DNA from: Pseudoalteromonas translucida KMM 520 | Lineage (GTDB): Bacteria; Pseudomonadota; Gammaproteobacteria; Enterobacterales; Alteromonadaceae | DNA length: 32,000 nt | Direction of reading: 5' to 3' | NCBI RefSeq assembly: GCF_001465295.1 | Contig: NZ_CP011034.1 | Coordinates: forward strand, 2,730,001 to 2,762,000 | Shown: positions 8,283 to 31,333 of the stretch, in pieces | Layout: every line of letters starts with the position of its first letter | How positions within the stretch are numbered: position 1 is the first letter of the stretch | The notes under the pieces: generated by a model | Databases searched by the model: none | What the model was told of the DNA's origin: nothing | Seen by the model: the letters and a program-made list of their open reading frames with translations, nothing else | Program-made: the position numbers and the translations under genes

Positions 8283-9041
8283 TCAGCCTACGGCTACTTG
8301 AATGCCTTTTTCTTCAAGCTCATTACGGACACTTTCTGGAAAAGCGCTATCGGTTATAATTATATCAAAGCATTCAATATCGAGTGCGTGGAAGGTGCCG
8401 ATCTTTCCATATTTAGATGAATCTGATATTAAAATTATCTTTTGTGCAGCCTTAGCAACTGCTTTTTTAATGATAACTTTTGGTTCACTCGGCGTAGAAA
8501 GTCCTCGTAAGTTCCAAGACGAAGTAGAAACAAACGCGACGTCTATATTCATGCCATTTAAAAAATCGGCCACTTTGCTGCCCACACTCGATTGATTATC
8601 ACGATCGACACGGCCACCTGTATGGTAAAGTTCACTCGAACTATGTTTCATTAAATACATGGCAATCATAAAGTCGTTAGTAATAAAGAGTAAATCATTT
8701 CGAGGTGCTAAATGACGTGCAATTTCAAGTGAAGTGGTACCAGCATCAAGATAAACCGATGCATTTTCAGGCACAAATTGACTTGCTAGTTTGCCAATTA
8801 CTGCTTTTTCTGCGGCATTCTGGTGCGCTTTCGCGTCATGAGATGGCTCATTATGTAATATTGTAGTTAACTGCACTCCCCCTGATACCGATAATACTTT
8901 GCCATCTTTTTCTAACTTTGCAATATCACGACGAATAGTCATGTGAGATACCGCAAGATTATCAACTAATTCATTGATACTAATAACATCTTGCTGTGAA
9001 AGTAATGATAAAATTATTTTATGGCGCTCTGCTGGGATCAT
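8283..9041 (-). CDS. DeoR-family transcriptional regulator (YgbI-like)
   Basis: N-terminal DeoR HTH (INELVDNLAVSHMTIRRDIAKLE) plus a C-terminal sugar-phosphate-binding DeoR-C domain. It is divergent from the acid-sugar genes, as ygbI is in E. coli. Confidence 0.85.
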   Translation of the reverse strand: MIPAERHKIILSLLSQQDVISINELVDNLAVSHMTIRRDIAKLEKDGKVLSVSGGVQLTTILHNEPSHDAKAHQNAAEKAVIGKLASQFVPENASVYLDAGTTSLEIARHLAPRNDLLFITNDFMIAMYLMKHSSSELYHTGGRVDRDNQSSVGSKVADFLNGMNIDVAFVSTSSWNLRGLSTPSEPKVIIKKAVAKAAQKIILISDSSKYGKIGTFHALDIECFDIIITDSAFPESVRNELEEKGIQVAVG

Positions 9042-9221
9042 AATGGCTAATGTCAGTTATTATTTTGTAGCTATCTTATCAACTCAACCTGCAACTGTGA
9101 AGTTATGCTTGTTATTGTTAAATAACTTTATTTTCCTGTAATTTCATTCGTACTTTCAACAATTTTTATATTTTTTCATGCCTAAAATGTTACCAATTGG
9201 TAAGTTGTGTGAATAAACTGC

Positions 9222-9273
9222 TTGACGACATTAAAATCCAAACATATAGTCACAACAATTAACGAGGATTAAC
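9222..9273 (+). promoter_or_regulatory. sigma70-type promoter plus candidate operator (module copy 1, upstream of the porin)
   Basis: TTGACG (9222-9227), 17 nt, TATAGT (9245-9250), then CACAA and the direct repeat TTAAC-N5-TTAAC (9259-9263 and 9269-9273). The same module recurs at 11010 and 16751. Confidence 0.5.
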
Positions 9274-9306
9274 ACATAGAGCCAATATCTCAATAAAGGA
9301 AAGTAC

Positions 9307-10578
9307 ATGAACAATCAAATACCCTTCAATAAAAAATTACTTACTGGCGTATTACTGGCAGGTCAACTTTGTTTTATAAATAGTGTTGCTGCACAAGAAA
9401 ATGGCTCAAATACCAATGAAAGACTCGAACAGCTTATTATAAAACAACAGCAGCAATTAGAAGCTTTAAAGCAAGAAGTTAACCTACTAAAAAACAAAAG
9501 CAATGATAATGTAGACGTCACTATGCAAGTGCCTGCAATACCACAAAGTAAGGTAGTTCATGCCGACCCTAAGGCTAAAACTAAGCTTGTTGTATCTGGC
9601 TGGGTAAACCAAATGCTATCGGTTGTTGATGATGGTGAAAGCGTTGATGCTTACATTGTTGATAATGACTTTGCTGAAAGCAGAATTAAATTTTTAGGTA
9701 CTGTTGCAGCCAGTGATGATATGACTATAGGCGCAAAAATTGAGCTTACTATTGCACCTAATAAATCTGGTAACGTAAGTCAAACGAACCAGGATGTTAA
9801 TAATATTTTCGATCAACGATACACTGAGGTATATCTAGAAAGTCAGCGCTACGGCAAGCTATCGCTAGGCAAAGGCTTCACCCCATCACATTCAAGCGCA
9901 TTAAGAGACCTATCTGGCACAGCACTTATTGCTAGTGCAAACGTGACGGATCAAGCCGGCGGTTTATTTTTTAGAGAACGTAATAGTGGCGCTTTAACTG
10001 ATATTAGGATCCTCGATGGCTTTAATAGTTTTGATGGCCTAAACCGACGCAATCGCCTGCGTTACGATACACCTACTTTTAATGGCTTTAGCTTAGCTAC
10101 ATCTATTATTAGCGATAGTCGATACGATGCAACGCTATCGTACGAAGGACAAGGTAACGGGCTTAAAGTGATTGGCGCAGCCGCTATTGCTGAACCTAAT
10201 TTGACCAATGCTGATTTACAATATGATGGCTCTGTTTCGGTACTTCATGAAAATACAGGGTTAAATTTAACGCTCTCTGGTGGTATGTTAGAGCGTGAAA
10301 ACCAAGATAACCCTAGTAATCTATTCGCTAAATTTGGTTTAATTAGAAATTATACGAGCTACGGCCAAACCGCTTTTTCGCTTGATTACACACGCTCAAA
10401 ACACCTACCTAATGAAGGAAGCGAAAGTACAGCCTATGGGTTAAGCACTGTGCAACAATTAAATAAATTCGGTACTGAAGTGTATGCCTCATACCGCATC
10501 TATTCACTAGATTTAGATATGGGCAACGACGTTAACGATATTCAGGTGCTATCTGTAGGAGCAAGGGTGAAATTTTAA
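9307..10578 (+). CDS. outer-membrane porin with an N-terminal coiled coil (DcaP-like architecture)
   Basis: Signal peptide ending in AAQE. Heptad-like segment ERLEQLIIKQQQQLEALKQEVNLLKNK. Alternating beta-strand pattern and a C-terminal aromatic beta-signal (ARVKF). Confidence 0.7.
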   Translation: MNNQIPFNKKLLTGVLLAGQLCFINSVAAQENGSNTNERLEQLIIKQQQQLEALKQEVNLLKNKSNDNVDVTMQVPAIPQSKVVHADPKAKTKLVVSGWVNQMLSVVDDGESVDAYIVDNDFAESRIKFLGTVAASDDMTIGAKIELTIAPNKSGNVSQTNQDVNNIFDQRYTEVYLESQRYGKLSLGKGFTPSHSSALRDLSGTALIASANVTDQAGGLFFRERNSGALTDIRILDGFNSFDGLNRRNRLRYDTPTFNGFSLATSIISDSRYDATLSYEGQGNGLKVIGAAAIAEPNLTNADLQYDGSVSVLHENTGLNLTLSGGMLERENQDNPSNLFAKFGLIRNYTSYGQTAFSLDYTRSKHLPNEGSESTAYGLSTVQQLNKFGTEVYASYRIYSLDLDMGNDVNDIQVLSVGARVKF

Positions 10579-10838: not shown

Positions 10839-11009
10839 AGTTAAGGCGTGTTGACCTTGGCAGTATTAAGCCATTTAAAACAAATTATATTTACCTCCTT
10901 CCATAGCTACTATTTTTAACTACCTATATTCCACATAAATTCACAACACAACCTAATACTTGAAAGTACTAATCCATGACTAAATGGTCGGTTTTATAAG
11001 CTAAAGTGC

Positions 11010-11061
11010 TTGACGACCAAATCACCTTAACATATAGTCACAATAGTTAACTATATTTAAC
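11010..11061 (+). promoter_or_regulatory. sigma70-type promoter plus candidate operator (module copy 2, upstream of ltnD)
   Basis: TTGACG (11010-11015), 17 nt, TATAGT (11033-11038), then CACAATAG and TTAAC-N5-TTAAC (11047-11051 and 11057-11061). Confidence 0.5.
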
Positions 11062-11096
11062 ACAAAGCACATACACGTTTAAAACGAGGTGAATAA

Positions 11097-12002
11097 ATGA
11101 ATGAACAACCAATCAAATCAGTCGCTGTTATAGGCCTTGGCTCCATGGGAATGGGCGCAGCTCAGTCGTGTGTGCGTGCAGGACTTGATGTATACGGTGT
11201 TGATTTAAACCTTGAAGCGCTAAAAACATTAAAAGAATATGGCGCTAAAGCGGTATCAAGCAACGCGAATGATTTTGCCAAAGACCTAGATGCGGTACTT
11301 TTACTGTTAATTAATGCAAAACAAGTAAAGTCTGTATTGTTTGACTCTGGCCTTGCTAGCGCCCTTAAGCCAAACACAGCCGTTATGGTATCAGCTACTA
11401 TTTCTGCCCAAGACGCTAAAGACATTGCAGCGAGTTTAGCTGAATATCAGCTTATTATGTTAGACGCCCCGGTATCTGGCGGCGCAATAAAAGCAGCTAG
11501 CGGTGAAATGACTATTATGGCATCAGGCTCAGCAGCAGCCTTTACTAAACTTGCGCCTGTTTTAGAGGCAACCGCCGCAAAAGTTTACAACATAGGCCTT
11601 GAAATAGGGCTAGGCGCAACGGTAAAAATTATTCACCAGCTATTAGCGGGTGTACATATAGCAGCAGGTGCTGAAGCAATGGCATTAGCTGCACGGGCAA
11701 ATATTCCTTTAGATCTTATGTACGATGTTGTAACAAATGCAGCCGGTAATTCGTGGATGTTCGAAAACCGCATGAAACATGTGGTTGACGGTGACTATTC
11801 TCCTAACTCTATGGTTGATATTTTTGTTAAGGATTTAGGCTTAGTGTCAGAAACCGCGCGAGATCTCGAGTTCGAACTTCCTCTCACTAGCACCGCGCTT
11901 AACATGTTTACCAGCGCCAGTAATGCCGGTTTTGGCAAAGAAGACGACAGTGCCGTTATAAAAATTTTTAAAGGTATTGAGTTACCTGGTGTGGAGAGCT
12001 AA
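11097..12002 (+). CDS. ltnD: beta-hydroxyacid dehydrogenase family protein, probable L-threonate dehydrogenase (YgbJ-like)
   Basis: N-terminal Rossmann motif VAVIGLGSMGMG. 3-hydroxyisobutyrate-dehydrogenase-type fold and length (301 aa). Sits immediately upstream of a DUF1537 kinase and a class II aldolase-like gene. Confidence 0.7.
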   Translation: MNEQPIKSVAVIGLGSMGMGAAQSCVRAGLDVYGVDLNLEALKTLKEYGAKAVSSNANDFAKDLDAVLLLLINAKQVKSVLFDSGLASALKPNTAVMVSATISAQDAKDIAASLAEYQLIMLDAPVSGGAIKAASGEMTIMASGSAAAFTKLAPVLEATAAKVYNIGLEIGLGATVKIIHQLLAGVHIAAGAEAMALAARANIPLDLMYDVVTNAAGNSWMFENRMKHVVDGDYSPNSMVDIFVKDLGLVSETARDLEFELPLTSTALNMFTSASNAGFGKEDDSAVIKIFKGIELPGVES

Positions 12003-12720
12003 TTATGTTACTTGGTGTAATTGCAGACGACTTTACCGGAGCAACCGACATTGCTGGTTTCCTCGTTGAACATGGTATGCGTACGGTACAACTTAACGAT
12101 GTACCTCACAGTAACACTGTGGTTGACGCGGATGCGGTTGTCGTAAGCCTTAAAACGCGCTCTTGCCCTGTAGAGCAAGCAATAGAGCAAAGCTTAGCCG
12201 CATTAAAATGGCTACAACAGCAAGGTTGTCAGCAGTTTTATTTCAAATATTGTTCAACCTTCGATAGTACGGCTAAAGGTAATATTGGCCCGGTAACCGA
12301 CGCTTTATTAGCGGCACTCGGTGAGTCTTTCACTATTGTCTGCCCTGCTTTGCCAGTGAATGGCCGCACCGTATTTAACGGTCACTTATTTGTACTTGGC
12401 GAGCCGCTTAATGAGTCGGGTATGCGTAACCACCCGGTAACGCCAATGACCGATTCAAGCTTGGTGCGCTTAATGAATAGCCAGTCGCAAGGAGAAGCCG
12501 GTTTAGTAAATTACCAAACCATTGAACAAGGCGCTGAGGCCATTACTAATCAGTTTGCTGAGCTACAAAGTGCCGGTAAACGCTATGCTGTGGTTGATGC
12601 CTTTAATAGTGCACATTTAGCAACCCTAGGTAAAGCGGCTAAGTCGCTAAAATTAGTGACTGGCGGCTCTGGATTAGCAGCCGGCATTGCAAAAAACTGG
12701 CAGCAGCAACTACAAGATCA
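11935..12720 (+). repeat. segmental duplication, copy A (ltnD 3' end plus the first 716 nt of otnK)
   Basis: Aligns with 16965-17750 at a constant offset of 5030 bp. By eye I count 11 mismatches over 12005-12720 and 6 mismatches in the 64 nt upstream (11941-12004). Confidence 0.9.
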
Positions 12721-13261
12721 AAACGACACTAAAGCCGCTGGCTTGCCAAGCAAAGCGCCTAGCGTTGTATTATCGGGTTCGTGCTCGCTAATGACCAACA
12801 AGCAAGTTTTACGCTATCAAACCCTTGCCCCGCACTTTGCCGTAGATGTAGAGGCGTGCATGAATAATACACTCTATGTGCAACACGCGTTTGATTGGGT
12901 AGTAAATAATCTTGATGGCAAATTTGCCCCTATGGTTTATGCCACGCAACCTGCTGCACAGCTAAAAGCAATTCAAGCTAAATATGGTGCACATGCATCG
13001 AGTGAAGCAGTAGAGTTATTTTTTAGCAAACTTGCTTATTTACTAAAAGAATTTGGCATACAAATTTTTATTGTTGCTGGCGGTGAAACGTCAGGCACGG
13101 TAACACAAAGCCTTGCTGTAAAAGGTTTTCATATTGGCCCTCAAATCGCCTCAGGTGTGCCTTGGGTAAAGTCTATTGATGGTTCGTTATCACTAGCACT
13201 TAAATCAGGTAATTTTGGCGATGAGTTGTTTTTTGAAAAGGCACAGGAGTTTTATTTATGA
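12005..13261 (+). CDS. otnK: DUF1537 four-carbon acid-sugar kinase, probable 3-oxo-tetronate kinase (YgbK-like), copy 1
   Basis: 418 aa. N-terminal motif GVIADDFTGATD and C-terminal motif AGGETSG are typical of the two-domain SBD_N/NBD_C kinase family. The operon context supports the call. Confidence 0.8.
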   Translation: MLLGVIADDFTGATDIAGFLVEHGMRTVQLNDVPHSNTVVDADAVVVSLKTRSCPVEQAIEQSLAALKWLQQQGCQQFYFKYCSTFDSTAKGNIGPVTDALLAALGESFTIVCPALPVNGRTVFNGHLFVLGEPLNESGMRNHPVTPMTDSSLVRLMNSQSQGEAGLVNYQTIEQGAEAITNQFAELQSAGKRYAVVDAFNSAHLATLGKAAKSLKLVTGGSGLAAGIAKNWQQQLQDQNDTKAAGLPSKAPSVVLSGSCSLMTNKQVLRYQTLAPHFAVDVEACMNNTLYVQHAFDWVVNNLDGKFAPMVYATQPAAQLKAIQAKYGAHASSEAVELFFSKLAYLLKEFGIQIFIVAGGETSGTVTQSLAVKGFHIGPQIASGVPWVKSIDGSLSLALKSGNFGDELFFEKAQEFYL

Positions 13262-13890
13262 CAGAACAAGATCTTAGAGAGAAAATGGTAAGCTTAGCGC
13301 TTTCTATGTTTCAGCGCGGCTATGCGACAGGCGGAGCGGGTAACCTATCTCTTAAATTACCCGACGGTAACTTTTTAGCTACGCCAACAGGCGCATCATT
13401 TGGCCGCTTAGTAGCTGATGAGCTTTCTGTTGTAGACATAAACGGTACTCTTATTTCGGGTAAACGTGCCTCTAAAGAAGTGGCTTTTCATTTAGAAATT
13501 TACCGCAACAGCCCTGACTGTAACGCCATTGTGCATTTACACTCTACTTACCTTACTGCGCTGTCTTGCTTAGAAACGCTGGATCCTGATAATGCCATTC
13601 GCCCATTTACACCGTATTACGTAATGCGTGTTGGCCAATTACCTGTGATCCCCTATTTACGCCCAGGCGAGCCACGTATTGCTGAAGAGCTCGGTAAGCT
13701 CGCTCCTCATCATCGCGCATTTTTGTTAGCTAATCATGGTCCAGTGATCACCGGCAGCGATATAGAAGATGCTGTAGACAATGCAGAAGAATTAGAAGAA
13801 ACAGCCAAGTTAATGTTTATCCTAAATAACCACCCTGTTCGTTATTTAACACATGCTGAAGTAGATGATCTCAAAGGCAGAGGCAAGTAG
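13258..13890 (+). CDS. otnC: class II aldolase/adducin-fold protein, probable 3-oxo-tetronate 4-phosphate decarboxylase (YgbL-like), copy 1
   Basis: 210 aa with metal-binding His motifs (IVHLHS, NHGP). The start overlaps the otnK stop (ATGA). Confidence 0.8.
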   Translation: MTEQDLREKMVSLALSMFQRGYATGGAGNLSLKLPDGNFLATPTGASFGRLVADELSVVDINGTLISGKRASKEVAFHLEIYRNSPDCNAIVHLHSTYLTALSCLETLDPDNAIRPFTPYYVMRVGQLPVIPYLRPGEPRIAEELGKLAPHHRAFLLANHGPVITGSDIEDAVDNAEELEETAKLMFILNNHPVRYLTHAEVDDLKGRGK

Positions 13891-14230
13891 TAAGCTATTT
13901 GCAGCAAGCCTCTCCGCACTTTTTAATGGTGTGAATTATCTAAAATAACTTGATAAAACACACCAAACAAAATTAAAGCTATAAATTTTTACAAGTTGAA
14001 GTTTAGTTGCAAACTATTCTAATCACTGGTTTTAGCATTAACTTTAGCAAAAAAAGTTGCGCATTTTTCTACCTCTTTATTTAGCACTATACTAATTTTA
14101 ACTAAAAATACTTATACCGTTAATTAATCTATTTATATTTTAATAATCAGTAGTACGTTTTCTATTACTATTAAAAATTTCACTTATTTATAGAAACCAC
14201 AATTAGCAATCTACAAAATACGGATAAACA

Positions 14231-15319
14231 ATGAACAATTTAATTAATCTAGTCCCTGCTGGTGTTGTTAGTGGGGAGCATTTAAATACTTTATATCGTG
14301 TTGCCCGTGAAAATAACTATGCCTTTCCTGCGGTCAATGTTGTTAGCACTAACTCTATTAATGCTGCGCTAGAAGCTGCATCCTTATGTAAGTCACCGAT
14401 TATTATTCAATTATCACATGGTGGGGCGGCATTTTTTGTAGGCAAAGGGGTGCCTCTTAAAGATCACCGACCCGCAATTACTGGCGCCATTGCAGCAGCC
14501 CATTATGTGCATGCTGTGGCAAAGCATTATGGTATTCCTGTGGTACTTCATACCGATCATGCCGCTAAAAAGTTGCTACCTTGGATAGATGGCCTATTAG
14601 AGGCCGGTGAAGCGTATTTCAAACTTCATGGGAAACCGTTATTTAGCTCACACATGTTAGATTTATCTGAAGAAACGCTCACTGAAAATATCGAAACCTG
14701 TCAGCAGTACCTATCTCGTATGGCAAAAATTAATATGGGGATAGAAATTGAGCTTGGCTGTACCGGTGGTGAAGAAGATGGGGTTGATAATTCACACCTA
14801 GACTCGTCATTACTTTACACTCAACCTGAAGATGTCGCTTATGCTTACCAACAATTAAGCCAAGTGAGCGATTGTTTTACTATTGCCGCTTCATTTGGCA
14901 ATGTCCATGGAGTGTACAAACCAGGTAATGTGAAGCTGACTCCAGAAATATTAAAAAACTCCCAAGCATTTGTGAGCAACAAATTTGGTTTGGCGCACAA
15001 CAGTTTAAACTTTGTTTTTCATGGTGGCTCAGGCTCTGCAGCAACCGAAATTACTGAAGCCATTGGCTATGGGGTAATAAAAATGAACATTGATACTGAT
15101 ACCCAATGGGCTTGCTGGGAAGGCGTTAGTAATTACTATAAAGAAAACTCAGCCTACCTACAAAGCCAAATTGGTAACCCCGATGGTGATGATCTCCCCA
15201 ATAAAAAGCACTACGATCCGCGCGTATGGCTACGCAAAGTTGAGCAATCAATGGCGCAGCGTTTAGCTATTTCATTTAAAGAGCTTAATTGCCTAAATAG
15301 GTATGAGGAAAAAGCATGA
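14231..15319 (+). CDS. fbaA: class II (FbaA-type) fructose-1,6-bisphosphate aldolase
   Basis: 362 aa, collinear with enterobacterial FbaA. Shared motifs include LHTDH, ELGCTGGEEDGVDN, SFGNVHGVYKPGNV, FVFHGGSG and KMNIDTDTQWA. Confidence 0.9.
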   Translation: MNNLINLVPAGVVSGEHLNTLYRVARENNYAFPAVNVVSTNSINAALEAASLCKSPIIIQLSHGGAAFFVGKGVPLKDHRPAITGAIAAAHYVHAVAKHYGIPVVLHTDHAAKKLLPWIDGLLEAGEAYFKLHGKPLFSSHMLDLSEETLTENIETCQQYLSRMAKINMGIEIELGCTGGEEDGVDNSHLDSSLLYTQPEDVAYAYQQLSQVSDCFTIAASFGNVHGVYKPGNVKLTPEILKNSQAFVSNKFGLAHNSLNFVFHGGSGSAATEITEAIGYGVIKMNIDTDTQWACWEGVSNYYKENSAYLQSQIGNPDGDDLPNKKHYDPRVWLRKVEQSMAQRLAISFKELNCLNRYEEKA

Positions 15320-16284
15320 AACGGTTAATCCCATGTTTAGAGCAAGACAAAGTTGAAATTGAATTAATTTTACTCATTAAAACCATACTAACAGCCTGTA
15401 AAGAAATTTCATTTCGGGTAGGCCAAGGAGCACTGTCTAATGTGTTGGGCTCTACCCTTGATGAAAATATTCAAGGTGAAACGCAAAAAAAGCTAGATGT
15501 TATTAGTAATCAGCTACTCAAAGATATGTTATTAGAAAGTGGTAAAGTCAGGACTATAGCCTCTGAAGAGGAAGACTATGTTGTTGCCGCTACTGAGAAT
15601 GCACCTTATATTGTTGCCTTTGATCCCCTTGACGGCTCTTCTAATATCGACATTAATGGTCAAATAGGCACTATTTTTACTATTTATCGCGCTAAAAACG
15701 ATGTTGCTGCTGATAGTGAATTACAATTTGCACAAAAAGGTTCTGAACAAGTATGTGCTGGTTATGTGTTATATGGCCCATCGACTATGCTGGCGCTTAC
15801 TACGGGTGGCCCATCTCGCTTATACACCTTAGACAAAACACAAGGTTGTTACTTATTAACCACCGAAAAACTAACGATAGCGACTGATACGCAAGAGTTT
15901 TCGGTGAACATGTCTAATTTTCATCAATGGTCAGCTGGCTTTAGTGATTATATTAATGACCTGCTTTTAGGTGAAAGTGGCGTGCGTGCTAAAAAATTTA
16001 ACATGCGCTGGAACGGCGCTATGGTGGGTGATATGCATCGGGTGTTATCCCGTGGTGGTATTTTTTGTTATCCCAACGATATTAACAAGCCTGAACAGCC
16101 CGCTAAGCTACGTTTATTATACGAAGCAAATCCAATGGCTATGTTAGTCGAGAACGCTAATGGCAAAGCATATACAGAGCATGAACGTATTTTAGATATA
16201 CTTCCCTCTCACATTCACCAACGCGTAGCCGTTGTTATGGGCTCGACTAATGAAGTAAATAAATGTTTAACGTATTTAAAGTAA
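15316..16284 (+). CDS. fbp: class 1 fructose-1,6-bisphosphatase
   Basis: 322 aa with FBPase class 1 motifs (QGETQKKLDVISN, ASEEED, DPLDGSSNID). The start overlaps the fbaA stop (ATGA). Confidence 0.9.
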   Translation: MKRLIPCLEQDKVEIELILLIKTILTACKEISFRVGQGALSNVLGSTLDENIQGETQKKLDVISNQLLKDMLLESGKVRTIASEEEDYVVAATENAPYIVAFDPLDGSSNIDINGQIGTIFTIYRAKNDVAADSELQFAQKGSEQVCAGYVLYGPSTMLALTTGGPSRLYTLDKTQGCYLLTTEKLTIATDTQEFSVNMSNFHQWSAGFSDYINDLLLGESGVRAKKFNMRWNGAMVGDMHRVLSRGGIFCYPNDINKPEQPAKLRLLYEANPMAMLVENANGKAYTEHERILDILPSHIHQRVAVVMGSTNEVNKCLTYLK

Positions 16285-16750
16285 CGCTAGATACGTTAGG
16301 TATCTGAGTCACCCTGAGCAGCTACATACTATTGCCAAATTAAGGCGAGCTATGTAGCTCATATCACTCTTTGGGCTCGGGCTTATTTTATTAAACTAAT
16401 TGGCAGCATGCTGATAACTGAGCAGATGTTAATTTTAACTATTTAAATCTGCTTTTCACTAAAGCCCAGCTCAGTGATGTATTTTAACTTCCTTCTGCTT
16501 TAGTTATATAACTATAAAAACGAAGCACTAAGTCACACATTATCTCAATTTCATCTCGACTCTTGATTAGCACACAGCAAAATAAAAATTAATTTCGGCG
16601 CTCATTTACTCCCATGATTAAAAGTGTGAATTTATGTTTGCTATTGTTTAAGTTATAAATTTTTATACGGAAAGTAAAAAAACACGCTTTTATTTAATAC
16701 TTTTCACTACAAACACATTACTAATGGGTATTTTTTGTGAGCTAAAGTGC

Positions 16751-16802
16751 TTGACGACAAAATAACCTTAACATATAGTCACAATAGTTAACTAGATTTA
16801 AC
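16751..16802 (+). promoter_or_regulatory. sigma70-type promoter plus candidate operator (module copy 3, upstream of the ltnD remnant and otnK copy 2)
   Basis: TTGACG (16751-16756), 17 nt, TATAGT (16774-16779), then CACAATAG and TTAAC-N5-TTAAC (16788-16792 and 16798-16802). Near-identical to copy 2. Confidence 0.5.
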
Positions 16803-16836
16803 AACCCATAGGTCTAACTTCTATTAATGTGAATAA

Positions 16837-17032
16837 ATGAATAGTCATCGCGCTAATAATCGTAGTTACTGACTATAGCGCTATTTTGCTAATGATTTAT
16901 GTTTTGAATACCACGTAAGAGTTCGACTGCGAATTATCATTTACTAGCATCGCGCTTGGTATGTGCAAAGAAGACAACAGTGCCGTTATAAAGGTTTTTA
17001 AAGGTATTAAGTTACCTGGTGTGGAGAAATAA
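16837..17032 (+). pseudogene. internally deleted remnant of an ltnD paralog
   Basis: It keeps the RBS/start context gtgaataaATGaat (compare 11091-11102) and the last roughly 110 nt of ltnD (gagttcga, actagca.cgcgctt, aagac.acagtgccgttataaa, gttacctggtgtggaga, TAA). It is only 196 bp against 906 bp for intact ltnD, and the reading frame stops after 11 codons. Confidence 0.75.
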
Positions 17033-17750
17033 TTATGTTACTTGGTGTAATTGCAGACGACTTTACCGGAGCAACCGACATTGCTGGTTTCCTCGTTGAA
17101 CATGGTATGCGTACGGTACAACTTAACGATGTACCTCACAGTAACACTGTGGTTGACGCGGATGCGGTTGTCGTAAGCCTTAAAACGCGCTCTTGTCCTG
17201 TAGAGCAAGCAATAGAGCAAAGCTTAGCCGCATTAAAATGGCTACAACAGCAAGGCTGTCAGCAGTTTTATTTCAAATATTGTTCAACCTTCGATAGTAC
17301 GGCTAAAGGTAATATTGGCCCGGTAACCGACGCTTTATTAGCGGCACTCGGTGAGTCTTTCACTATTGTCTGCCCTGCTTTGCCAGTGAATGGCCGCACC
17401 GTATTTAACGGTCACTTATTTGTACTTGGCGAGCCGCTTAATGAATCGGGTATGCGTAATCACCCGGTAACGCCAATGACCGACTCAAGCTTGGTGCGCT
17501 TAATGAATAGCCAGTCGCAAGGAGAAGCCGGTTTAGTAAATTACCAAACCATTGAGCAAGGCGCTGAGGCCATTACTCATCAGTTTGCTGAGCTACAAAG
17601 TGCAGGTAAACGCTACGCTGTGGTTGATGCCTTTAATAGTGCACATTTAGCAACCCTAGGCCAAGCGGCTAAGTCGCTAAAATTAGTGACTGGCGGCTCT
17701 GGATTAGCAGCCGGCATTGCAAAAAACTGGCAGCAGCAACTACAAGATCA
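16965..17750 (+). repeat. segmental duplication, copy B
   Basis: Partner of 11935-12720 (offset 5030 bp). Similarity drops sharply after 17750. Confidence 0.9.
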
Positions 17751-18291
17751 AGGCGAAGCCAAAAAAGCGGGCTACCCAACCAAAGCAGCCACCGTCATAT
17801 TATCGGGTTCGTGCTCGTTAATGACCAATAAACAAGTTGCAGCTTATAAAACTAAAGCTCCTCACTTCGCGCTCGATATCAACCATTGCTTAAACTTAGA
17901 TAATTATAGCAACCAAGTATTTGACTGGGTGATTAACAACTTAAATACCCCATTCGCCCCCTTAATTTATGCCACTGCCGATGTTAATGCATTACAAGCA
18001 ACGCATAAAAAGTATGGTGCCGATGTTTCCAGCCAAGCAGTTGAAAACCTCTTTAGCCAATTAACCATTAAACTTAAAGAATATGGTGTGCGCAATTTTA
18101 TTGTTGCCGGTGGCGAAACATCTGGCGTTGTTACCCAAAGTTTACAGCTTGATGGCTTTCATATAGGCCCTCAAATTAGCCAAGGTGTGCCATGGGTAAA
18201 GGGCATTAATAGCGATATTTCCTTGGCATTAAAATCTGGGAATTTTGGCTCTGAACCTTTCTTTACCCAAGCTCAGGAGTATTTTAAATGA
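17035..18291 (+). CDS. otnK: DUF1537 four-carbon acid-sugar kinase, probable 3-oxo-tetronate kinase, copy 2 (mosaic paralog)
   Basis: 418 aa. Residues 1 to about 239 differ from copy 1 at only 2 positions (N182H, K210Q). The remaining roughly 180 residues are only about 60% identical by eye. Confidence 0.8.
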   Translation: MLLGVIADDFTGATDIAGFLVEHGMRTVQLNDVPHSNTVVDADAVVVSLKTRSCPVEQAIEQSLAALKWLQQQGCQQFYFKYCSTFDSTAKGNIGPVTDALLAALGESFTIVCPALPVNGRTVFNGHLFVLGEPLNESGMRNHPVTPMTDSSLVRLMNSQSQGEAGLVNYQTIEQGAEAITHQFAELQSAGKRYAVVDAFNSAHLATLGQAAKSLKLVTGGSGLAAGIAKNWQQQLQDQGEAKKAGYPTKAATVILSGSCSLMTNKQVAAYKTKAPHFALDINHCLNLDNYSNQVFDWVINNLNTPFAPLIYATADVNALQATHKKYGADVSSQAVENLFSQLTIKLKEYGVRNFIVAGGETSGVVTQSLQLDGFHIGPQISQGVPWVKGINSDISLALKSGNFGSEPFFTQAQEYFK

Positions 18292-18920
18292 ATGAAGCAC
18301 AATTAAGGCTGCAAGTAGTAGAGCTTGCCCGTTCAATGTTTGAACGTGGGTATGCCACAGGTGGTGCCGGTAATCTTTCGGTAAAGCTGTCTAATGGCCA
18401 TTTTTTAACAACCCCGACTGGATCTTCATTTGGTCGTTTGGTGGCCGAAGAGCTCTCTGTAGTTGATAAAGATGGAAAACACCTTACAGGTAAGCCGCCC
18501 TCTAAAGAGGTGTCTTTTCACTTAGCTATTTACGAAAAAGACCCTAACTGCAATGCAATTGTACACCTACATTCAACGTACTTAACCGCTTTATCTTGCC
18601 TTGAAAATTTAGATCCTAGCAATGCAATAAAGGCATTTACACCTTATTACGTAATGCGCGTTGGTGAGTTACCTGTGGTGCCTTATTACCGCCCGGGCGA
18701 TCCGCAAATAGCTAAAGATTTAGCGAAATTAGCAGGAAAGTATCGGGCATTTTTACTCTCTAATCATGGCCCTATCATTACTGGTAGTGATTTTTTAGAT
18801 GCAGTAGATAACGCAGAAGAATTAGAAGAAACCGCTAAGCTAGCATTTTTATTACAAGGTAAAGAAACACGTTACCTAACCGACTCAGAAGTAACTGATT
18901 TAAAAGGGAGAGGAAAATAA
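18288..18920 (+). CDS. otnC: class II aldolase-fold protein, probable 3-oxo-tetronate 4-phosphate decarboxylase, copy 2
   Basis: 210 aa, roughly 70% identical to copy 1 by eye. ATGA overlap with otnK copy 2. Confidence 0.8.
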   Translation: MNEAQLRLQVVELARSMFERGYATGGAGNLSVKLSNGHFLTTPTGSSFGRLVAEELSVVDKDGKHLTGKPPSKEVSFHLAIYEKDPNCNAIVHLHSTYLTALSCLENLDPSNAIKAFTPYYVMRVGELPVVPYYRPGDPQIAKDLAKLAGKYRAFLLSNHGPIITGSDFLDAVDNAEELEETAKLAFLLQGKETRYLTDSEVTDLKGRGK

Positions 18921-19696
18921 TGGCTAAATTTGCAGCAAATCTAACTATGCTTTTTAGTGAAGTCACATTCCTTGAACGCTTTGAACGCGCACACAAAGCA
19001 GGCTTTAAAGCCGTTGAATACCTTTTCCCGTATGCTTTTGAAGCACAAGTATTAGCAGATAAATTACAGCAATTTGGATTAGAGCAAGCTTTATTTAATA
19101 TGCCAGCGGGCGATTGGGATGCTGGTGAGCGCGGCTTTGCAGCCATCCCGGGGCGTGAACAAGAGTTTATGCAAAGTGTTGCAATAGCGCTCGACTACGC
19201 CACCGCATTAAATTGTAAAAAAGTACATGCTATGGCTGGTATTGTAAACGCTCAATTTAGCCGTGAGCAGCATGTTGACACATTTATTAAAAACATTCGC
19301 TATGCCGCTGATACGTTTGCAAAACATGATATTGAACTGATGATAGAGCCATTAAATAACCGAGATGTGCCTCATTATTTTATTGCTCACCAAAGAGAAG
19401 CTGCTGAGTTAATTAAATTAATTGACCGTCCTAATGTGAAGCTGCAACTAGATATTTATCATGCTGCAATAATGGATGGTGATCTGACCCACCTAATTAA
19501 TGATCTCGCCTCGGTGACAGGGCATATTCAAATCGCCTCTGTACCAGCACGCCATGAGCCCTCTGAAGGGGAAATTAATTACCCACATATATTTAATGTA
19601 CTAGACGAATCTGGTTATAAAGGCTGGATCGGCTGCGAATACAACCCTAAAAACAACACTGAAGATGGTCTTGAGTGGCTAAAATTCTACTTATAA
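18920..19696 (+). CDS. otnI: hydroxypyruvate-isomerase-family TIM-barrel protein, probable 2-oxo-tetronate isomerase (YgbM-like)
   Basis: 258 aa, collinear with Hyi/YgbM (FAANLTMLF, PAGDWDAGERG, PGRE, IEPLN, HIQIA, GEINY, GCEY). TAATG overlap with otnC copy 2. Confidence 0.75.
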   Translation: MAKFAANLTMLFSEVTFLERFERAHKAGFKAVEYLFPYAFEAQVLADKLQQFGLEQALFNMPAGDWDAGERGFAAIPGREQEFMQSVAIALDYATALNCKKVHAMAGIVNAQFSREQHVDTFIKNIRYAADTFAKHDIELMIEPLNNRDVPHYFIAHQREAAELIKLIDRPNVKLQLDIYHAAIMDGDLTHLINDLASVTGHIQIASVPARHEPSEGEINYPHIFNVLDESGYKGWIGCEYNPKNNTEDGLEWLKFYL

Positions 19697-19750: not shown

Positions 19751-20698
19751 ATGAATATTATTATCACCGGTGGTGCTGGTTTTTTAGGCTCAGAGCTACT
19801 AAATAACTTGCTACAACAGTTTCCTCAAATTGAAACAATTAAAGTAGTAGACCGTATTAAATTAGACAGCAATTTAATTACCAATAATAAAGTTCACTCT
19901 ATCGTTGCTGATATTACCGTTAAAGAAGATATAGAAAAAATCATCAATGAACAAACTACTCACGTGTTCCATTTAGCTGCAATTGTTTCAAGCCATGCAG
20001 AGGAAGATTTTGAGTTAGGCATGCTGGTTAATTTAAAAGCCACACACATTTTACTCGAGTGCTGTCGCCAAGCTAACCCTAATATTCGTCTTGTTTTTTC
20101 AAGCTCACTTGCTGTGTTTGGTGGGGAGCTTCCAGAACAAATTGATTACATGACAGCTATGCAACCTAGTTCTTCGTACGGTACACAAAAAGCAATTTGT
20201 GAATTACTCGTCAACGATTACGCTAGAAAAGGCTTTGTTGATGCAGTTACGGTTCGCCTGCCTACTATTTGTATTCGCCCAGGCGTACCTAATAAAGCGG
20301 CCTCTTCTTTTGTCAGTGGCATGATACGCGAACCTCTTAAACAGCAAGCATCAAACTGCCCAGTCGATGTTGATTTACCTTTATGGGTATCGAGTCCTAA
20401 CAGCGTGATTAAAAATATTATTCATGCAAGTCAGCTCGACACAAAACTGTTAAAAGGCTTTCGCACTGTAAATTTACCTGGATTAAAAACATCACCAAAA
20501 GAAATGATCGAATGCTTAGTTAAAATAAAAGGCGAGCCCGTTTTAGAGCTCATTAGTTACGAAAAAGATGAAAATGTAGAACGTATTGTTTCTAGTTGGC
20601 CACAGTCAATGAATAACGAAAAAGAACTAGCAATAGGATTTGTTAAAGATAAAGACTTTAACTCTATTTTAAATGCTTACTTAGACACCCAAAAATAA
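19751..20698 (+). CDS. denD: NAD-dependent epimerase/dehydratase-family (extended SDR) protein, probable D-erythronate dehydrogenase
   Basis: N-terminal motif ITGGAGFLGS and catalytic YxxxK (YGTQK). 315 aa. Positioned inside an otn operon. Confidence 0.65.
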   Translation: MNIIITGGAGFLGSELLNNLLQQFPQIETIKVVDRIKLDSNLITNNKVHSIVADITVKEDIEKIINEQTTHVFHLAAIVSSHAEEDFELGMLVNLKATHILLECCRQANPNIRLVFSSSLAVFGGELPEQIDYMTAMQPSSSYGTQKAICELLVNDYARKGFVDAVTVRLPTICIRPGVPNKAASSFVSGMIREPLKQQASNCPVDVDLPLWVSSPNSVIKNIIHASQLDTKLLKGFRTVNLPGLKTSPKEMIECLVKIKGEPVLELISYEKDENVERIVSSWPQSMNNEKELAIGFVKDKDFNSILNAYLDTQK

Positions 20699-20735: not shown

Positions 20736-22223
20736 ATGTTACCAATATCTGTAATCGGCTTAATAATAGCCGTATTTGTGTTAATATTTTTAGTATTAAG
20801 AACCAGAGTACACGTTTTCATTGCTATGCTTGCAGCTGCCTGTTTGGCTGGTTTAATTGGCGGTTTAAGTGTAAACGAAACGATGGCAGCCATAAGTGAT
20901 GGCTTTGGTGGCACTTTAGGTGGCATTGGTATTGTTATCGGTTTAGGTGTAATGATGGGGGCTATTTTAGAAGCCTCTGGCGCTGGTGAATCAATAGCCT
21001 ACAACTTTATTAAGTGGCTAGGTAAGAAAAAAGAAGAAACCGCACTGGCCGTAACTGGTTATATTGTAAGTATTCCTGTGTTTGTTGATAGTGCACTTAT
21101 TATTCTTTACCCAATTGCCAAATCGTTAGCAAGAACGTCGAATCGCTCTATTTTAACCTTAACAGTATCGCTGGCCGGTGGTTTAGTTGTTGCCCATCAC
21201 TGTATTCCACCAACACCTGGCCCTTTAGGTGTCGCTAGTATATTTGGCGTAGATTTAGCTTCAATGTTAGGTTTTGGGCTTTTGATTGCCGCTCCTTGCG
21301 TATACGGTATTATTCTATACTCACGCTGGCTAGAAAAGCACTTCCCAGAGTTCATTGCTATCCCAACGGTAAGCCACACAGGCGATGGTGCTAAGCAAGT
21401 TCACAATGACTACATGGCAACAAAAGAAGCTAAAAATCTCCCTTCACTAACCAAGTCAATTATGCCTATTGTAGTGCCAATTGTATTAATCTTAGTGAAA
21501 TCGCTTATGGGCCTTGCTGAAAAGCAGTTTGGTATGGACGGGTTATCGGCCAGTACTTTTGGTGCTGTTTTTAACTTTCTTGGCCATCCTATTATCGCAC
21601 TTTCAATAAGTACTTTATTGGCTGTTTATACATTAACGCCTCATTTGGATAAAGAAACAACAACAACGAAACTAGAAGAAGGCATTACGACTTGCGGTAT
21701 TATTTTACTTGTAACCGGTGCCGGTGGCGCATTAGGCGCGGTATTACGCGCATCAGGTGCAGGTGCTGAAATTGCCAACCAAATTATTGAGTTATCAATA
21801 TCACCAATAATGATCCCATTTATTATTGCTACGTTGGTGCGAATTATTCAAGGCAGTGGTACTGTTTCAATGATTACTGCAGCGTCAATCTCTGCGCCAG
21901 TACTGCTCGAAATGGAAGGTGTGAATATGTTATTCGCAGCATCAGCAGCAACTATGGGTAGTTTATTTGCGGGCTACTTTAACGATAGCTTATTCCACAT
22001 TGTTAACCGCTTAATGGGCGTCACTGAAGTTAAAAAGCAACTTGTTATTTGGACAGTGCCAACGACTATTGCTTGGGCTATAGGTGGATCACTTATCATG
22101 ATTTTGAATCTGTTCTTTGGCAGCCATGGTAGTATTTATGACCCGCTATTCCCTTTATTAGTTTTAGCTGGCTGTTTGTTGTTTGTTAAAAGTCAAAGTA
22201 AGCAGCATTTACAAGTAGCTTAA
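20736..22223 (+). CDS. GntP-family acid-sugar:H+ symporter (YgbN-like)
   Basis: 495 aa polytopic membrane protein with GntP-type sequence. AAGAGG Shine-Dalgarno upstream. It is the last gene of the operon, as ygbN is in E. coli. Confidence 0.85.
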   Translation: MLPISVIGLIIAVFVLIFLVLRTRVHVFIAMLAAACLAGLIGGLSVNETMAAISDGFGGTLGGIGIVIGLGVMMGAILEASGAGESIAYNFIKWLGKKKEETALAVTGYIVSIPVFVDSALIILYPIAKSLARTSNRSILTLTVSLAGGLVVAHHCIPPTPGPLGVASIFGVDLASMLGFGLLIAAPCVYGIILYSRWLEKHFPEFIAIPTVSHTGDGAKQVHNDYMATKEAKNLPSLTKSIMPIVVPIVLILVKSLMGLAEKQFGMDGLSASTFGAVFNFLGHPIIALSISTLLAVYTLTPHLDKETTTTKLEEGITTCGIILLVTGAGGALGAVLRASGAGAEIANQIIELSISPIMIPFIIATLVRIIQGSGTVSMITAASISAPVLLEMEGVNMLFAASAATMGSLFAGYFNDSLFHIVNRLMGVTEVKKQLVIWTVPTTIAWAIGGSLIMILNLFFGSHGSIYDPLFPLLVLAGCLLFVKSQSKQHLQVA

Positions 22224-22448: not shown

Positions 22449-22687
22449 CTCGCCCAGCGGCCGGACTTTAACTTATAACAGCGGCACTCTCGCGTGCCGC
22501 TTGAGTACGGCAACTCAAATTTTAGGCATAAAAAAAACCCGGCTAAATCTAGCAGGGGCTATCAAAAAGTGGCATCTGCGGCCGGAATTTAACTTATAAC
22601 AGCGGCACTCCCGCGTGCCGCTCGAGTCCGGAACTCAAATTTTAGGCATAAAAAAACCCCGACCAATTTGATCGGGGCTATAAAAAG
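22449..22687 (-). repeat. two tandem tRNA-array-like units (121 bp and 118 bp) downstream of tRNA-Leu
   Basis: Unit A is 22449-22569 and unit B is 22570-22687. Each starts with a segment resembling the tRNA-Leu acceptor and T-arm 3' end (..gcggccgga..). Each contains the hairpin agcggcac/gtgccgct and a second stem gagt/actc, and each ends with a hairpin plus T-run terminator when read on the - strand. Confidence 0.75.
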
Positions 22688-22772
22688 TGGTACCAGCGGC
22701 CGGACTCGAACCGGCACGCCTTTCGGCAGGGGATTTTGAATCCCCCATGTATACCAATTTCATCACGCTGGC
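22688..22772 (-). tRNA. tRNA-Leu (anticodon CAA), type II with a long variable arm and encoded CCA
   Basis: The reverse complement reads GCCAGCGTGATGAAATTGGTATACATGGGGGATTCAAAATCCCCTGCCGAAAGGCGTGCCGGTTCGAGTCCGGCCGCTGGTACCA. It has a 7-bp acceptor stem, anticodon loop TTCAAAA and T-loop GGTTCGAGTCC. A strong terminator follows (ccccgatc/ggtcgggg plus T7). Confidence 0.9.
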
Positions 22773-31239: not shown

Positions 31240-31242
31240 GTG

Positions 31243-31326
31243 GCTCTAAGCTCTAAGCTCTAAGCTCTAGGCTCTAGGCTCTAGGCTCTAGGCTCTAGGC
31301 TCTAGGCTCTAGGCTCTAGGCTCTAG
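31243..31326. repeat. heptanucleotide microsatellite: (GCTCTAA)x3 then (GCTCTAG)x9
   Basis: 12 perfect head-to-tail 7-bp units counted directly. Stop codons occur in all frames on both strands. It lies between the fadL stop and the shared terminator. Confidence 0.95.
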
Positions 31327-31333
31327 GCAAGTA

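Follow-up and report, generated by a model that had tools for sequence, protein, structure and literature searches.

How can two genes on one chromosome be almost identical over their 5' parts and only about 61% identical at the nucleotide level over the remainder? We addressed this question for two copies of otnK in Pseudoalteromonas translucida KMM 520, using a 32,000-nucleotide stretch of its genome (NZ_CP011034.1, positions 2,730,001 to 2,762,000; hereafter the window). The window contains two side-by-side clusters for the catabolism of L-threonate and D-erythronate, which are four-carbon acid sugars, and the two clusters differ in ancestry. In the DUF1537 pathway for such sugars a dehydrogenase, an isomerase and a kinase act before a decarboxylase that yields DHAP (PMC12994016). 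Cluster A is ordered ygbI, porin gene, ltnD, otnK-A, otnC-A, fba and fbp, and cluster B consists of a promoter, an ltnD remnant, otnK-B, otnC-B, otnI, denD and gntP (Table 1). The fba and fbp genes thus sit between the kinase copies, within a 5-kb unit flanked by direct repeats.

Table 1. Features of the two acid-sugar clusters, in window coordinates.
Feature	Position	Strand	Support
ygbI-like DeoR-family repressor gene, A-type	8283-9041	-	Pfam HTH_DeoR and DeoRC
Promoter-like site TTGACG-17-TATAGT, copy 1, 5' of porin gene	9222-9250	+	repeat family D3
Promoter-like site, copy 2, 5' of ltnD, serves operon A	11010-11038	+	
ltnD, L-threonate 2-dehydrogenase	11097-12002	+	NF043037, 459.7 bits (cut-off 350)
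Converted tract, copy A: ltnD 3' end, 2-nt spacer and otnK codons 1-239	11937-12720	+	
otnK-A (PTRA_a2902), 3-oxo-tetronate kinase	12005-13261	+	NF043035, 612.8 bits (cut-off 350); identical to WP_058374042
otnC-A, 3-oxo-tetronate 4-phosphate decarboxylase	13258-13890	+	NF043034
fba, class II aldolase	14231-15319	+	
fbp, class 1 FBPase	15316-16284	+	
Promoter-like site, copy 3, 5' of copy B	16751-16779	+	repeat families D3 and D4
ltnD pseudogene remnant, LtnD residues ~250-301	16901-17029	+	tblastn, blastn, alignment
Converted tract, copy B	16967-17750	+	
otnK-B (PTRA_a2906), chimeric 3-oxo-tetronate kinase	17035-18291	+	NF043035, 613.3 bits (cut-off 350)
otnC-B	18288-18920	+	
otnI	18920-19696	+	
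denD	19751-20698	+	
GntP-family transporter gene	20736-22223	+	

Both OtnK proteins match the equivalog model NF043035 over their full length and well over its cut-off, and OtnC, OtnI and LtnD/DenD all accompany them in the window with equivalog-level scores. From these matches we predict 3-oxo-tetronate kinase activity for OtnK-A and for the chimeric OtnK-B alike. Identities as D-threonate kinase or as OiaK were rejected for both proteins, the model scores being far under the respective cut-offs. The ygbI-like product matched NF040890 with E=4e-98, which is under the curated cut-off. The three promoter-like sites belong to a triplicated 66-nt promoter/operator-like element.

Positions 12005-12720 can be aligned gap-free with 17035-17750, an offset of 5030 bp, and the two stretches differ at 11 of 716 nt (98.5% identity), with nine of the mismatches at third codon positions and two amino-acid changes (N182H and K210Q) in codons 1-239. 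Immediately past the tract, 5 of the next 10 nt (12721-12730) differ; nucleotide identity from 12721 on is about 61-73%, OtnK codons 240-418 specify proteins that are 60.3% identical (71 of 179 residues differ), and the otnC paralogs are 67% identical in nucleotide and 71.9% in amino-acid sequence. The initial annotation had described this tract by eye; its counts were reproduced exactly, and its estimates of about 60% for the C-terminal part of the kinase and about 70% for otnC agree with the values given here. Its claim of a stepwise rather than gradual loss of identity held as well: the maximum chi-square breakpoint lies at 12721, with chi2 = 290 compared to a maximum of 25.8 among 2000 permutations. 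Third-codon-position mismatches number 9 of 238 before the break and 93 of 180 after it, and dS is 0.057 for codons 1-239, 0.64 for codons 240-273 and 2.5 for codons 274-418, a jump of roughly 40-fold across the break (dS is saturated for the otnC paralogs).

This pattern bears directly on the simplest explanation, namely that the N-domain is more conserved than the C-domain through selective constraint, with no recombination. The N-domain does evolve more slowly across orthologues, the p-distance between A-type and B-type sequences being 0.26 for the N-domain and 0.35 for the C-domain. However, synonymous sites have been homogenised along with the rest, and the step in dS rules out constraint as the sole cause; moreover, high identity reaches into the non-coding ltnD remnant, and among orthologues of A-type ancestry, N-domain identity to OtnK-A is only about 83%. 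We therefore regard constraint alone as having practically no chance of being correct.

The left edge of the tract lies within ltnD. As had been proposed, identity over 11941-12004 is about 90% (6 mismatches in 64 nt) and ltnD becomes a decayed remnant in copy B, where alignment, tblastn and blastn reveal an in-frame stop and a deletion. We refined the edge to near 11937, adjoining a 27-nt (9-codon) deletion in copy B, so that the left end of the tract is made up of the final ~68 nt of ltnD, which are 91% identical between the copies. The whole tract (11937-12720 and 16967-17750) thus spans 784 nt with 17 mismatches (97.8% identity). To the 5' side copy B carries an older ltnD remnant, 67% identical over 79 nt, that contains the in-frame stop. 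Identity thus rises in steps from left to right: 67% in the upstream part of the ltnD remnant, 91% over its last 68 nt and 98.5% in otnK.

These flanking sequences raise the possibility that the tract is simply the leftover of a tandem duplication of an A-type promoter-ltnD-otnK segment, with B-type DNA of foreign origin later taking the place of the stretch that runs from mid-otnK through gntP. The 109 nt around the third promoter-like site share 83% identity with the region of the ltnD promoter, which together with the ltnD remnant implies that copy B once had a promoter-ltnD-otnK layout, and a duplication would also account for the presence of an A-type N-domain in both copies. What it does not accommodate is the identity step on the left, since neither part of the remnant codes for protein in copy B and both would be expected to have decayed to the same extent.

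The relationships of the individual genes show that cluster A is Vibrio-like and cluster B Marinomonas/Psychromonas-like. YgbI is 79% identical to its V. injensis homologue and 64% identical to that of Marinomonas, and OtnC-A shares 84% identity with its counterparts in V. injensis and V. metschnikovii; OtnC-B, OtnI, DenD and GntP have their nearest homologues in Marinomonas, with 76-89% identity. Within the kinases, otnK-A is A-type throughout, and otnK-B is A-type over codons 1-239 and B-type over codons 240-418. Accordingly, the OtnK-A C-domain, its codons 240-273 and both N-domains are nearest to Vibrio fluvialis/cholerae-like proteins (P0003, P0005, P0006 and P0008), and the OtnK-B C-domain is nearest to Psychromonas and Marinomonas proteins (L038, L035, L040 and L027). 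Separate analyses of the two domains, which had been suggested as a check, placed OtnK-B incongruently, with 100% bootstrap support each way in a distance comparison. That both N-domains are A-type indicates that A overwrote B. No close relative yielded a native B-type N-domain, and the A-to-B direction is accordingly read from more distant orthologues.

Comparison with related strains indicates that exchange at this locus has happened more than once and in both directions. In every related strain examined, the junction lies at codon 273/274, which is 34 codons past that of KMM 520 and inside NBD_C. In L081-L088 and all other members of the cluster, the A copy carries the B-type sequence GEAKKAGYPTKAATVILSGSCSLMTNKQVAAYKT up to codon 273; the corresponding 102-nt segment of the relatives' A copy is 98% identical to B of the window and 75.5% identical to A. 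The junction at 239/240, at the domain boundary, is therefore specific to this strain rather than conserved or demonstrably selected. When the window was compared with other strains, 11-16 sites in the tract, and none in the C-domain, had copies that agreed within a strain but differed between strains, and A/B differences common to the strains numbered 0-2 in the tract and 143-147 in the C-domain. Comparison with the 3.06-Mb contig of strain WY3 gave 11 strain-specific tract sites common to both copies, and the tract is more similar within the genome (98.5%) than between orthologues (96.8-97.5%).

These patterns point to recurrent, two-way concerted evolution rather than a single event, although one ancestral and one lineage-specific event would account for most of the data. 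That the KMM 520 lineage underwent a conversion of its own once the strains had diverged is only weakly suggested, by the 11 tract differences between A and B as against 18 between orthologues. The initial annotation had proposed a recent tract laid over old paralogs. The tract does overlie much older homologues; these behave as xenologues rather than paralogs, and a single recent event did not hold up. New here are the 273/274 junction of the relatives, the copying of B-type sequence into A, and the strain-specific substitutions common to both copies. The duplication followed by replacement offers no explanation for B-type codons 240-273 in the otnK-A of other strains or for the shared strain-specific substitutions, and conversion would still be needed; we consider it quite unlikely.

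Repeats of this kind invite a further concern, that the tract or the chimeric otnK-B was made by repeat collapse or mis-joining in the KMM 520 assembly. Assemblers clearly struggle here: metagenome contigs cover all four paths through the repeat, among them L106 and L108, in which ltnD is joined to a B-type C-domain, and L093, in which the upstream flank of copy B is joined to an A-type C-domain, and short-read metagenome contigs have no mismatches between copies, which bubble collapse by the assembler could partly cause. Against this, 11 sites are resolved as different between the copies in the window, each copy is bordered left and right by unique sequence, and the two-copy layout, each copy with its own flanks and with the 5-kb spacer between them, is found in the window and in more than ten other independent assemblies. 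It is present on the WY3 contig, whose size and indel errors suggest to us a long-read origin and which has about 11 substitutions between the copies. Three draft isolate genomes are interrupted at an identical residue of either copy, as would be the case for a real repeat. Nor should bubble collapse be able to produce the junction of B-type codons 240-273 with an A-type C-domain in other strains, given that the sequences stay distinct downstream of it. The independent assemblies largely answer the concern, and we consider an artefact very unlikely.

Interlocus gene conversion between otnK-A and otnK-B, recurrent and two-way, very probably explains the locus. The two genes would recombine non-reciprocally as direct repeats 5,030 bp apart, presumably in a RecA-dependent manner; the retention of unique flanks and of the 5-kb spacer indicates non-reciprocal transfer, since crossing-over of direct repeats would have caused loss or duplication of the spacer. 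About 0.78 kb, comprising ~68 nt from the ltnD 3' end together with otnK codons 1-239, would have been copied from cluster A to cluster B, displacing the native sugar-binding domain of OtnK-B, and the homogenised stretch would then have served as substrate for later exchanges in either direction. In the lineage of the relatives, which is P. nigrifaciens-like, a B-to-A event would have brought B-type codons 240-273 into otnK-A. Mismatches peak near the junctions (12 in 29 nt at 717 to 745, and 6 in 10 nt at 818 to 827), and tract ends may fall at such local maxima of mismatch density; in that case mechanics, and not selected domain modularity, would place the junction within or close to the variable linker between the domains.

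The outcome would be two intact kinases whose sugar-binding domains are two substitutions apart. In both, Pfam assigns SBD_N (PF07005) to residues 3-227 and NBD_C (PF17042) to residues 254-410, which places the 239/240 junction in the 26-residue linker between them, where the initial annotation had put it; its view that the kinases combine essentially one sugar-binding domain with two nucleotide-binding domains about 60% identical is likewise borne out by the sequence comparison. An AlphaFold2 model (pLDDT 83.9) has the junction between helices 222-235 and 240-245, and the nearest solved structure is 1YZY (HI1011; E=1e-152). Both genes are intact, with an orthologous dN/dS of about 0.11 for each C-domain, and both copies are under purifying selection. 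We predict that the two kinases use the same substrate.

Could selection instead keep the sugar-binding domains identical while letting the ATP-binding domains differ, making a junction at the domain boundary functional? Neither of the two independent junctions (239/240 and 273/274) is more than 35 codons from the Pfam boundary, both fall in loops between secondary-structure elements in the AlphaFold2 model, and the purifying selection on both genes would fit as well. Yet the 273/274 junction lies 20 residues into NBD_C, past the first strand-helix unit; two junctions are too few for a test of clustering; and both ends coincide with peaks of mismatch density, as a purely mechanical model predicts. 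A need for two specialised kinases is also not known, because a single OtnK suffices in Brucella, where it supports growth on both L-threonate and D-erythronate, and the same is cited for R. eutropha (PMC10580937). Adaptive homogenisation thus seems to us unlikely. In its broadest form, which we hold to be similarly doubtful, the locus would be a natural domain-swap system maintained by selection, providing one sugar specificity for two operons, with the repeats perhaps also acting as a recombination switch. Were this so, the diverged ATP-binding domains would give different nucleotide use or regulation, and the 0.8-kb direct repeats would delete or amplify the 5-kb block containing otnC-A, fba and fbp; contigs that match both crossover products (L106/L108 and L093) exist.

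Under recurrent gene conversion, the locus is a clean case of concerted evolution confined to part of a gene, here in a metabolic operon of a bacterium, with sharp ends, two-way transfer and junctions that differ by lineage within a species group. In practical terms, trees of whole OtnK proteins will misplace these genes, so that N- and C-domains need separate analysis, and the otnK repeat causes breaks or mis-joins in short-read assemblies from this Pseudoalteromonas group. The OtnK chimeras at residues 239/240 and 273/274, which appear to be natural and viable, may be useful for the engineering of DUF1537 kinases.

The locus adds a further example to a process already well known, a clear but ordinary instance of bacterial gene conversion that introduces neither a new mechanism nor a new kind of system. 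The canonical arrangement is a single ygbI-ltnD-otnK-otnC-otnI-denD-gntP cluster, and Vibrio, Marinomonas and Psychromonas have these genes in this order. In its place the window contains two partial clusters fused head to tail, with otnK and otnC duplicated, an ltnD pseudogene in the second unit, and added porin, fba and fbp genes. A close parallel is tufA/tufB of Proteobacteria, described as the best-documented bacterial case (PMC6053082), in which, as here, recurrent non-reciprocal recombination keeps two dispersed copies on the same chromosome closer to each other than to their orthologues; however, essentially the whole tuf gene is homogenised after an ancient duplication, whereas in otnK only the 5' 57-65% is affected and the partner clusters differ in ancestry. 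In rRNA operons, recombination between repeated loci of a chromosome likewise spreads substitutions among copies (PMC8022953, PMC6002687); those are many RNA-gene copies homogenised over their full length, in contrast to two protein-coding copies with sharp internal tract ends. Mammalian TLR1/TLR6 are tandem paralogues in which conversion is also limited to part of the coding sequence, so that the two proteins remain alike in one region while the rest diverges (PMC2077338), but there the process is eukaryotic, meiotic or mitotic, whereas otnK belongs to a bacterial metabolic operon in which the junction varies by strain.

We assigned the gene layout of the window with NCBIfam and Pfam (see table). 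Both kinases exceed the OtnK equivalog cut-off widely and are exact matches to proteins of the 3.39-Mb P. translucida KMM 520 record, OtnK-A to PTRA_a2902 and OtnK-B to PTRA_a2906.

Features of the two threonate/erythronate clusters and their surroundings (window positions)
Feature	Position	Strand	Basis or remark
YgbI-like DeoR repressor gene	8283-9041	minus	NCBIfam/Pfam
~66-nt element 1	9214-9279		upstream of porin gene
Porin gene	9307-10578		NCBIfam/Pfam
~66-nt element 2	11002-11067		upstream of ltnD
ltnD	11097-12002		NCBIfam/Pfam
otnK-A	12005-13261		NCBIfam/Pfam
otnC-A	13258-13890		NCBIfam/Pfam
Class II fba	14231-15319		NCBIfam/Pfam
Class 1 fbp	15316-16284		NCBIfam/Pfam
~66-nt element 3	16743-16808		upstream of otnK-B
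ltnD remnant	~16901-17029		between copy-B promoter and otnK-B; matches LtnD residues ~250-301
otnK-B	17035-18291		NCBIfam/Pfam
otnC-B	18288-18920		NCBIfam/Pfam
otnI	18920-19696		NCBIfam/Pfam
denD	19751-20698		NCBIfam/Pfam
GntP-family transporter gene	20736-22223		NCBIfam/Pfam
tRNA-Leu(CAA) gene	22688-22772	minus	whole region with degenerate units 22454-22772
GGCTCTA array	31242-31328		just downstream of valS

A repeat search within the window recovered a direct repeat with an offset of 5030. In 50-nt windows, identity between copies A and B is ~25% upstream of 11900, 90% at 11950-11999 and 96-100% over 12000-12699, after which it drops to 46-82% up to 13890, where otnC ends. The exact counts in the initial annotation were reproduced: 12005-12720 differs from copy B at 11 positions (9 of the 11 at third codon positions), the kinases carry two amino-acid changes in the tract (N182H and K210Q), and the first 10 nt past it contain 5 mismatches. 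There are 6 mismatches to copy B in 11941-12004, and 71 differences between the last 179 residues of the two proteins. A maximum chi-square scan placed the breakpoint at 12721 (chi2 = 290, compared with at most 25.8 in 2000 permutations), and Nei-Gojobori dS between otnK-A and otnK-B rises from 0.057 in codons 1-239 to 0.64 in codons 240-273 and 2.5 in codons 274-418, reaching saturation between otnC-A and otnC-B. Identity is lost stepwise after 12720, as the annotation had held. The step in dS means that stronger protein constraint cannot account for the step in identity, and purifying selection alone is ruled out as its source. The breakpoint also lies, as proposed, at the SBD_N/NBD_C boundary: in both kinases Pfam assigns residues 3-227 to SBD_N and 254-410 to NBD_C. 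In an AlphaFold2 model (pLDDT 83.9), residue 239/240 separates helix 222-235 from helix 240-245, and the C-domain's first strand (253-257) comes only later. The nearest solved structure is 1YZY, with an indel in the inter-domain linker.

For the left edge, upstream regions were compared by blastn and tblastn in place of a MAFFT alignment that was unreliable over a large deletion. Copy B has a promoter-like site (TTGACG-17-TATAGT, 16751-16779), and the 109 nt around it share 83% identity with the promoter region of ltnD. The decayed ltnD remnant noticed upstream of copy B is genuine: it is interrupted by an in-frame stop and lacks 9 codons. Identity to ltnD is 67% across 79 nt of the upstream part and rises to 91% in the final 68 nt. 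Given this step, the tract is flanked by old, diverged homology on both sides, as a conversion patch should be.

Among the loci examined from Vibrio, Photobacterium, Marinomonas and Psychromonas, a single cluster of ygbI, ltnD, otnK, otnC and otnI is usual, with denD and gntP next after otnI in many of them. YgbI and OtnC-A of the window are nearest to V. injensis/metschnikovii (79-84%), and OtnC-B, OtnI, DenD and GntP to Marinomonas (76-89%). The C-domain of OtnK-A, together with codons 240-273, is nearest to V. fluvialis/cholerae-like proteins (P0003, P0005, P0006 and P0008), and that of OtnK-B to loci of Psychromonas and Marinomonas (L038, L035, L040 and L027). The N-domains of both kinases are nearest to the V. 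fluvialis/cholerae-like group, and in column bootstraps OtnK-B was nearer the Vibrio-like A-type group in its N-domain (100%) and nearer the Marinomonas/Psychromonas-like B-type group in its C-domain (100%). On these sequence affinities the trees of the N- and C-domains are in conflict, with A as donor and B as recipient of the primary transfer. The copies had been described as old paralogs; the old divergence outside the tract stands (dS 2.5), but the more fitting description is of two adjacent clusters that differ in origin. A genome-contig scan with OtnK-A returned no Pseudoalteromonas (best match 77% identical), and this collection gave no map of one- and two-cluster layouts across the genus. 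Protein searches with the B-type C-domain returned only fragments or partial proteins of up to 308 aa and no close relative with a native B-type N-domain, and none of the 9 loci from a metagenome scan with that domain had an unconverted copy B.

Exact-protein look-ups revealed the two-copy layout in many independent assemblies, namely in metagenome contigs L081-L086, L088-L089 and L101-L104, in isolate contig L100 and in the 3.06-Mb contig of strain WY3 (L087). We compared the window site by site with each other strain. Within the tract, 11-16 sites agree between copies of a strain and differ between strains, and 0-2 A/B differences are common to both strains; the C-domain gives the reverse, with 0 and 143-147 sites, respectively. 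Tract identity within the genome (98.5%) exceeds that between orthologs (96.8-97.5%). Bubble collapse may exaggerate the perfect match between copies seen in short-read contigs, so the safest shared-substitution comparison is that of KMM 520 with WY3, at 11 sites. The WY3 copies differ at ~11 substitutions, with the A/B differences at positions 410 and 425 also present in KMM 520 and that at 627 swapped, which suggests patchy short exchanges between copies. All strains share the six A/B differences found in the 68 nt that precede otnK; later exchanges therefore began no further upstream than the start codon, and an older event is preserved in the stretch before it. The locus is a case of interlocus gene conversion with concerted evolution. 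In WY3 (GCA_018588205.1, 6277-7037 and 15036-18672 of the contig), ygbI, otnK-A, otnK-B, otnI and denD are split by frameshifts and the copy-B tract has six single-base indels, a pattern that resembles uncorrected errors of long reads more than pseudogenisation.

In all of these other assemblies the stretch identical between copies reaches otnK nt 817, compared with 716 in the window. These additional 102 nt share 98% identity with window copy B and 75.5% with window copy A, and in every other A-type protein of the 90% cluster the sequence as far as residue 273 is the B-type peptide GEAKKAGYPTKAATVILSGSCSLMTNKQVAAYKT. B-type codons in A copies imply a B-to-A conversion in that lineage, ending at codon 273/274, a junction that the AlphaFold2 model places inside NBD_C, past the first strand-helix unit. 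The linker junction at 239/240 is, by this sequence comparison, specific to KMM 520.

Four arguments indicate that the two-copy tract is real. The window copies have 11 resolved differences and unique flanks, and the layout recurs across assembly pipelines. In drafts of Pseudoalteromonas sp. SCQQ13, NZS127 and SG44-5, the partial A and B proteins start at an identical residue in both copies (P0244/P0260, P0245/P0258 and P0247/P0257, respectively); contigs end inside the shared tract, a point at which short-read assemblies from this group are regularly interrupted, and this is the expected signature of a true repeat. Finally, bubble collapse is ruled out as the origin of the 273/274 junction between B-type codons 240-273 and an A-type C-domain, because the sequences never reconverge downstream. 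Three metagenome contigs follow crossed paths. L106 (5235 nt) and L108 (2841 nt) run from ltnD to otnK with a B-type C-domain and otnC-B, a path that equals deletion of the 5-kb unit, and L093 (3370 nt) runs from the end of fbp through the copy-B promoter into an otnK whose C-domain is A-type, followed by otnC-A, as at the junction of a duplication or an excised circle. Either the assembler took wrong paths over the ~0.8 kb exact repeat, or the contigs are real deletion, amplification or excision products of crossover between direct repeats.

All full-length otnK copies are intact (418 aa) and orthologous dN/dS is ~0.11 for both C-domains, so both kinases appear functional. With one shared sugar-binding domain, they are predicted to act on the same substrate. 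L-threonate, via LtnD, and D-erythronate, via DenD, are converted to 2-oxo-tetronate and then by OtnI, OtnK and OtnC to DHAP (PMC12994016). Brucella fails to grow on either substrate after otnK deletion (PMC10580937), and the same essentiality in R. eutropha is cited within that paper. As a single otnK is essential for both substrates in those organisms, the extra kinase and decarboxylase of this locus look redundant and would be a by-product of the merger of two clusters. Mismatches peak at both tract ends (12 in 29 nt at 717-745 and 6 in 10 nt at 818-827), where tracts would be predicted to end if heteroduplex extension is limited by mismatches, and no part of the protein varies more than the linker. 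On the two junctions available, we therefore take the proximity of the junction to the domain boundary to be more likely mechanical or fortuitous than the result of selection.

In each of the three ~66-nt elements, a strong promoter of sigma-70-like type (TTGACG-17-TATAGT) precedes a conserved motif, CACAAYARTTAAC...TTAACA. The elements are probably promoters under the YgbI-like DeoR repressor, in which case the porin would belong to the same regulon; such a triplicated promoter/operator-like element would fit the binding of a DeoR regulator to several sites in the ltnD promoter (PMC10580937). Between the two units, downstream of otnC-A, lie fba and fbp, neither of which occurs in the canonical clusters examined from Vibrio, Marinomonas and Psychromonas; their placement would tie DHAP from the pathway directly to gluconeogenesis. 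An Rfam scan of the window found one tRNA and nothing relevant to the tract. The tRNA-Leu(CAA) gene is followed by two degenerate ~121-nt units just past the end of cluster B. Each unit combines a piece resembling a tRNA 3' end (…TCCGGCCGC…) with a hairpin of terminator-like form, and the pair may have arisen from tandem tRNA copies that have since decayed or from old duplications of an integration site. The perfect-looking heptanucleotide tandem array (12.4 copies, 97% matches) might vary in length between strains.

Literature searches, none aimed directly at conversion in otnK or at this locus, found no report of either. The same process, interlocus conversion with concerted evolution, is known from tuf and rRNA operons (PMC6053082, PMC8022953). 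Unlike those systems, conversion at otnK covers only part of the gene, its partners are xenologous clusters, and its junction differs between lineages.
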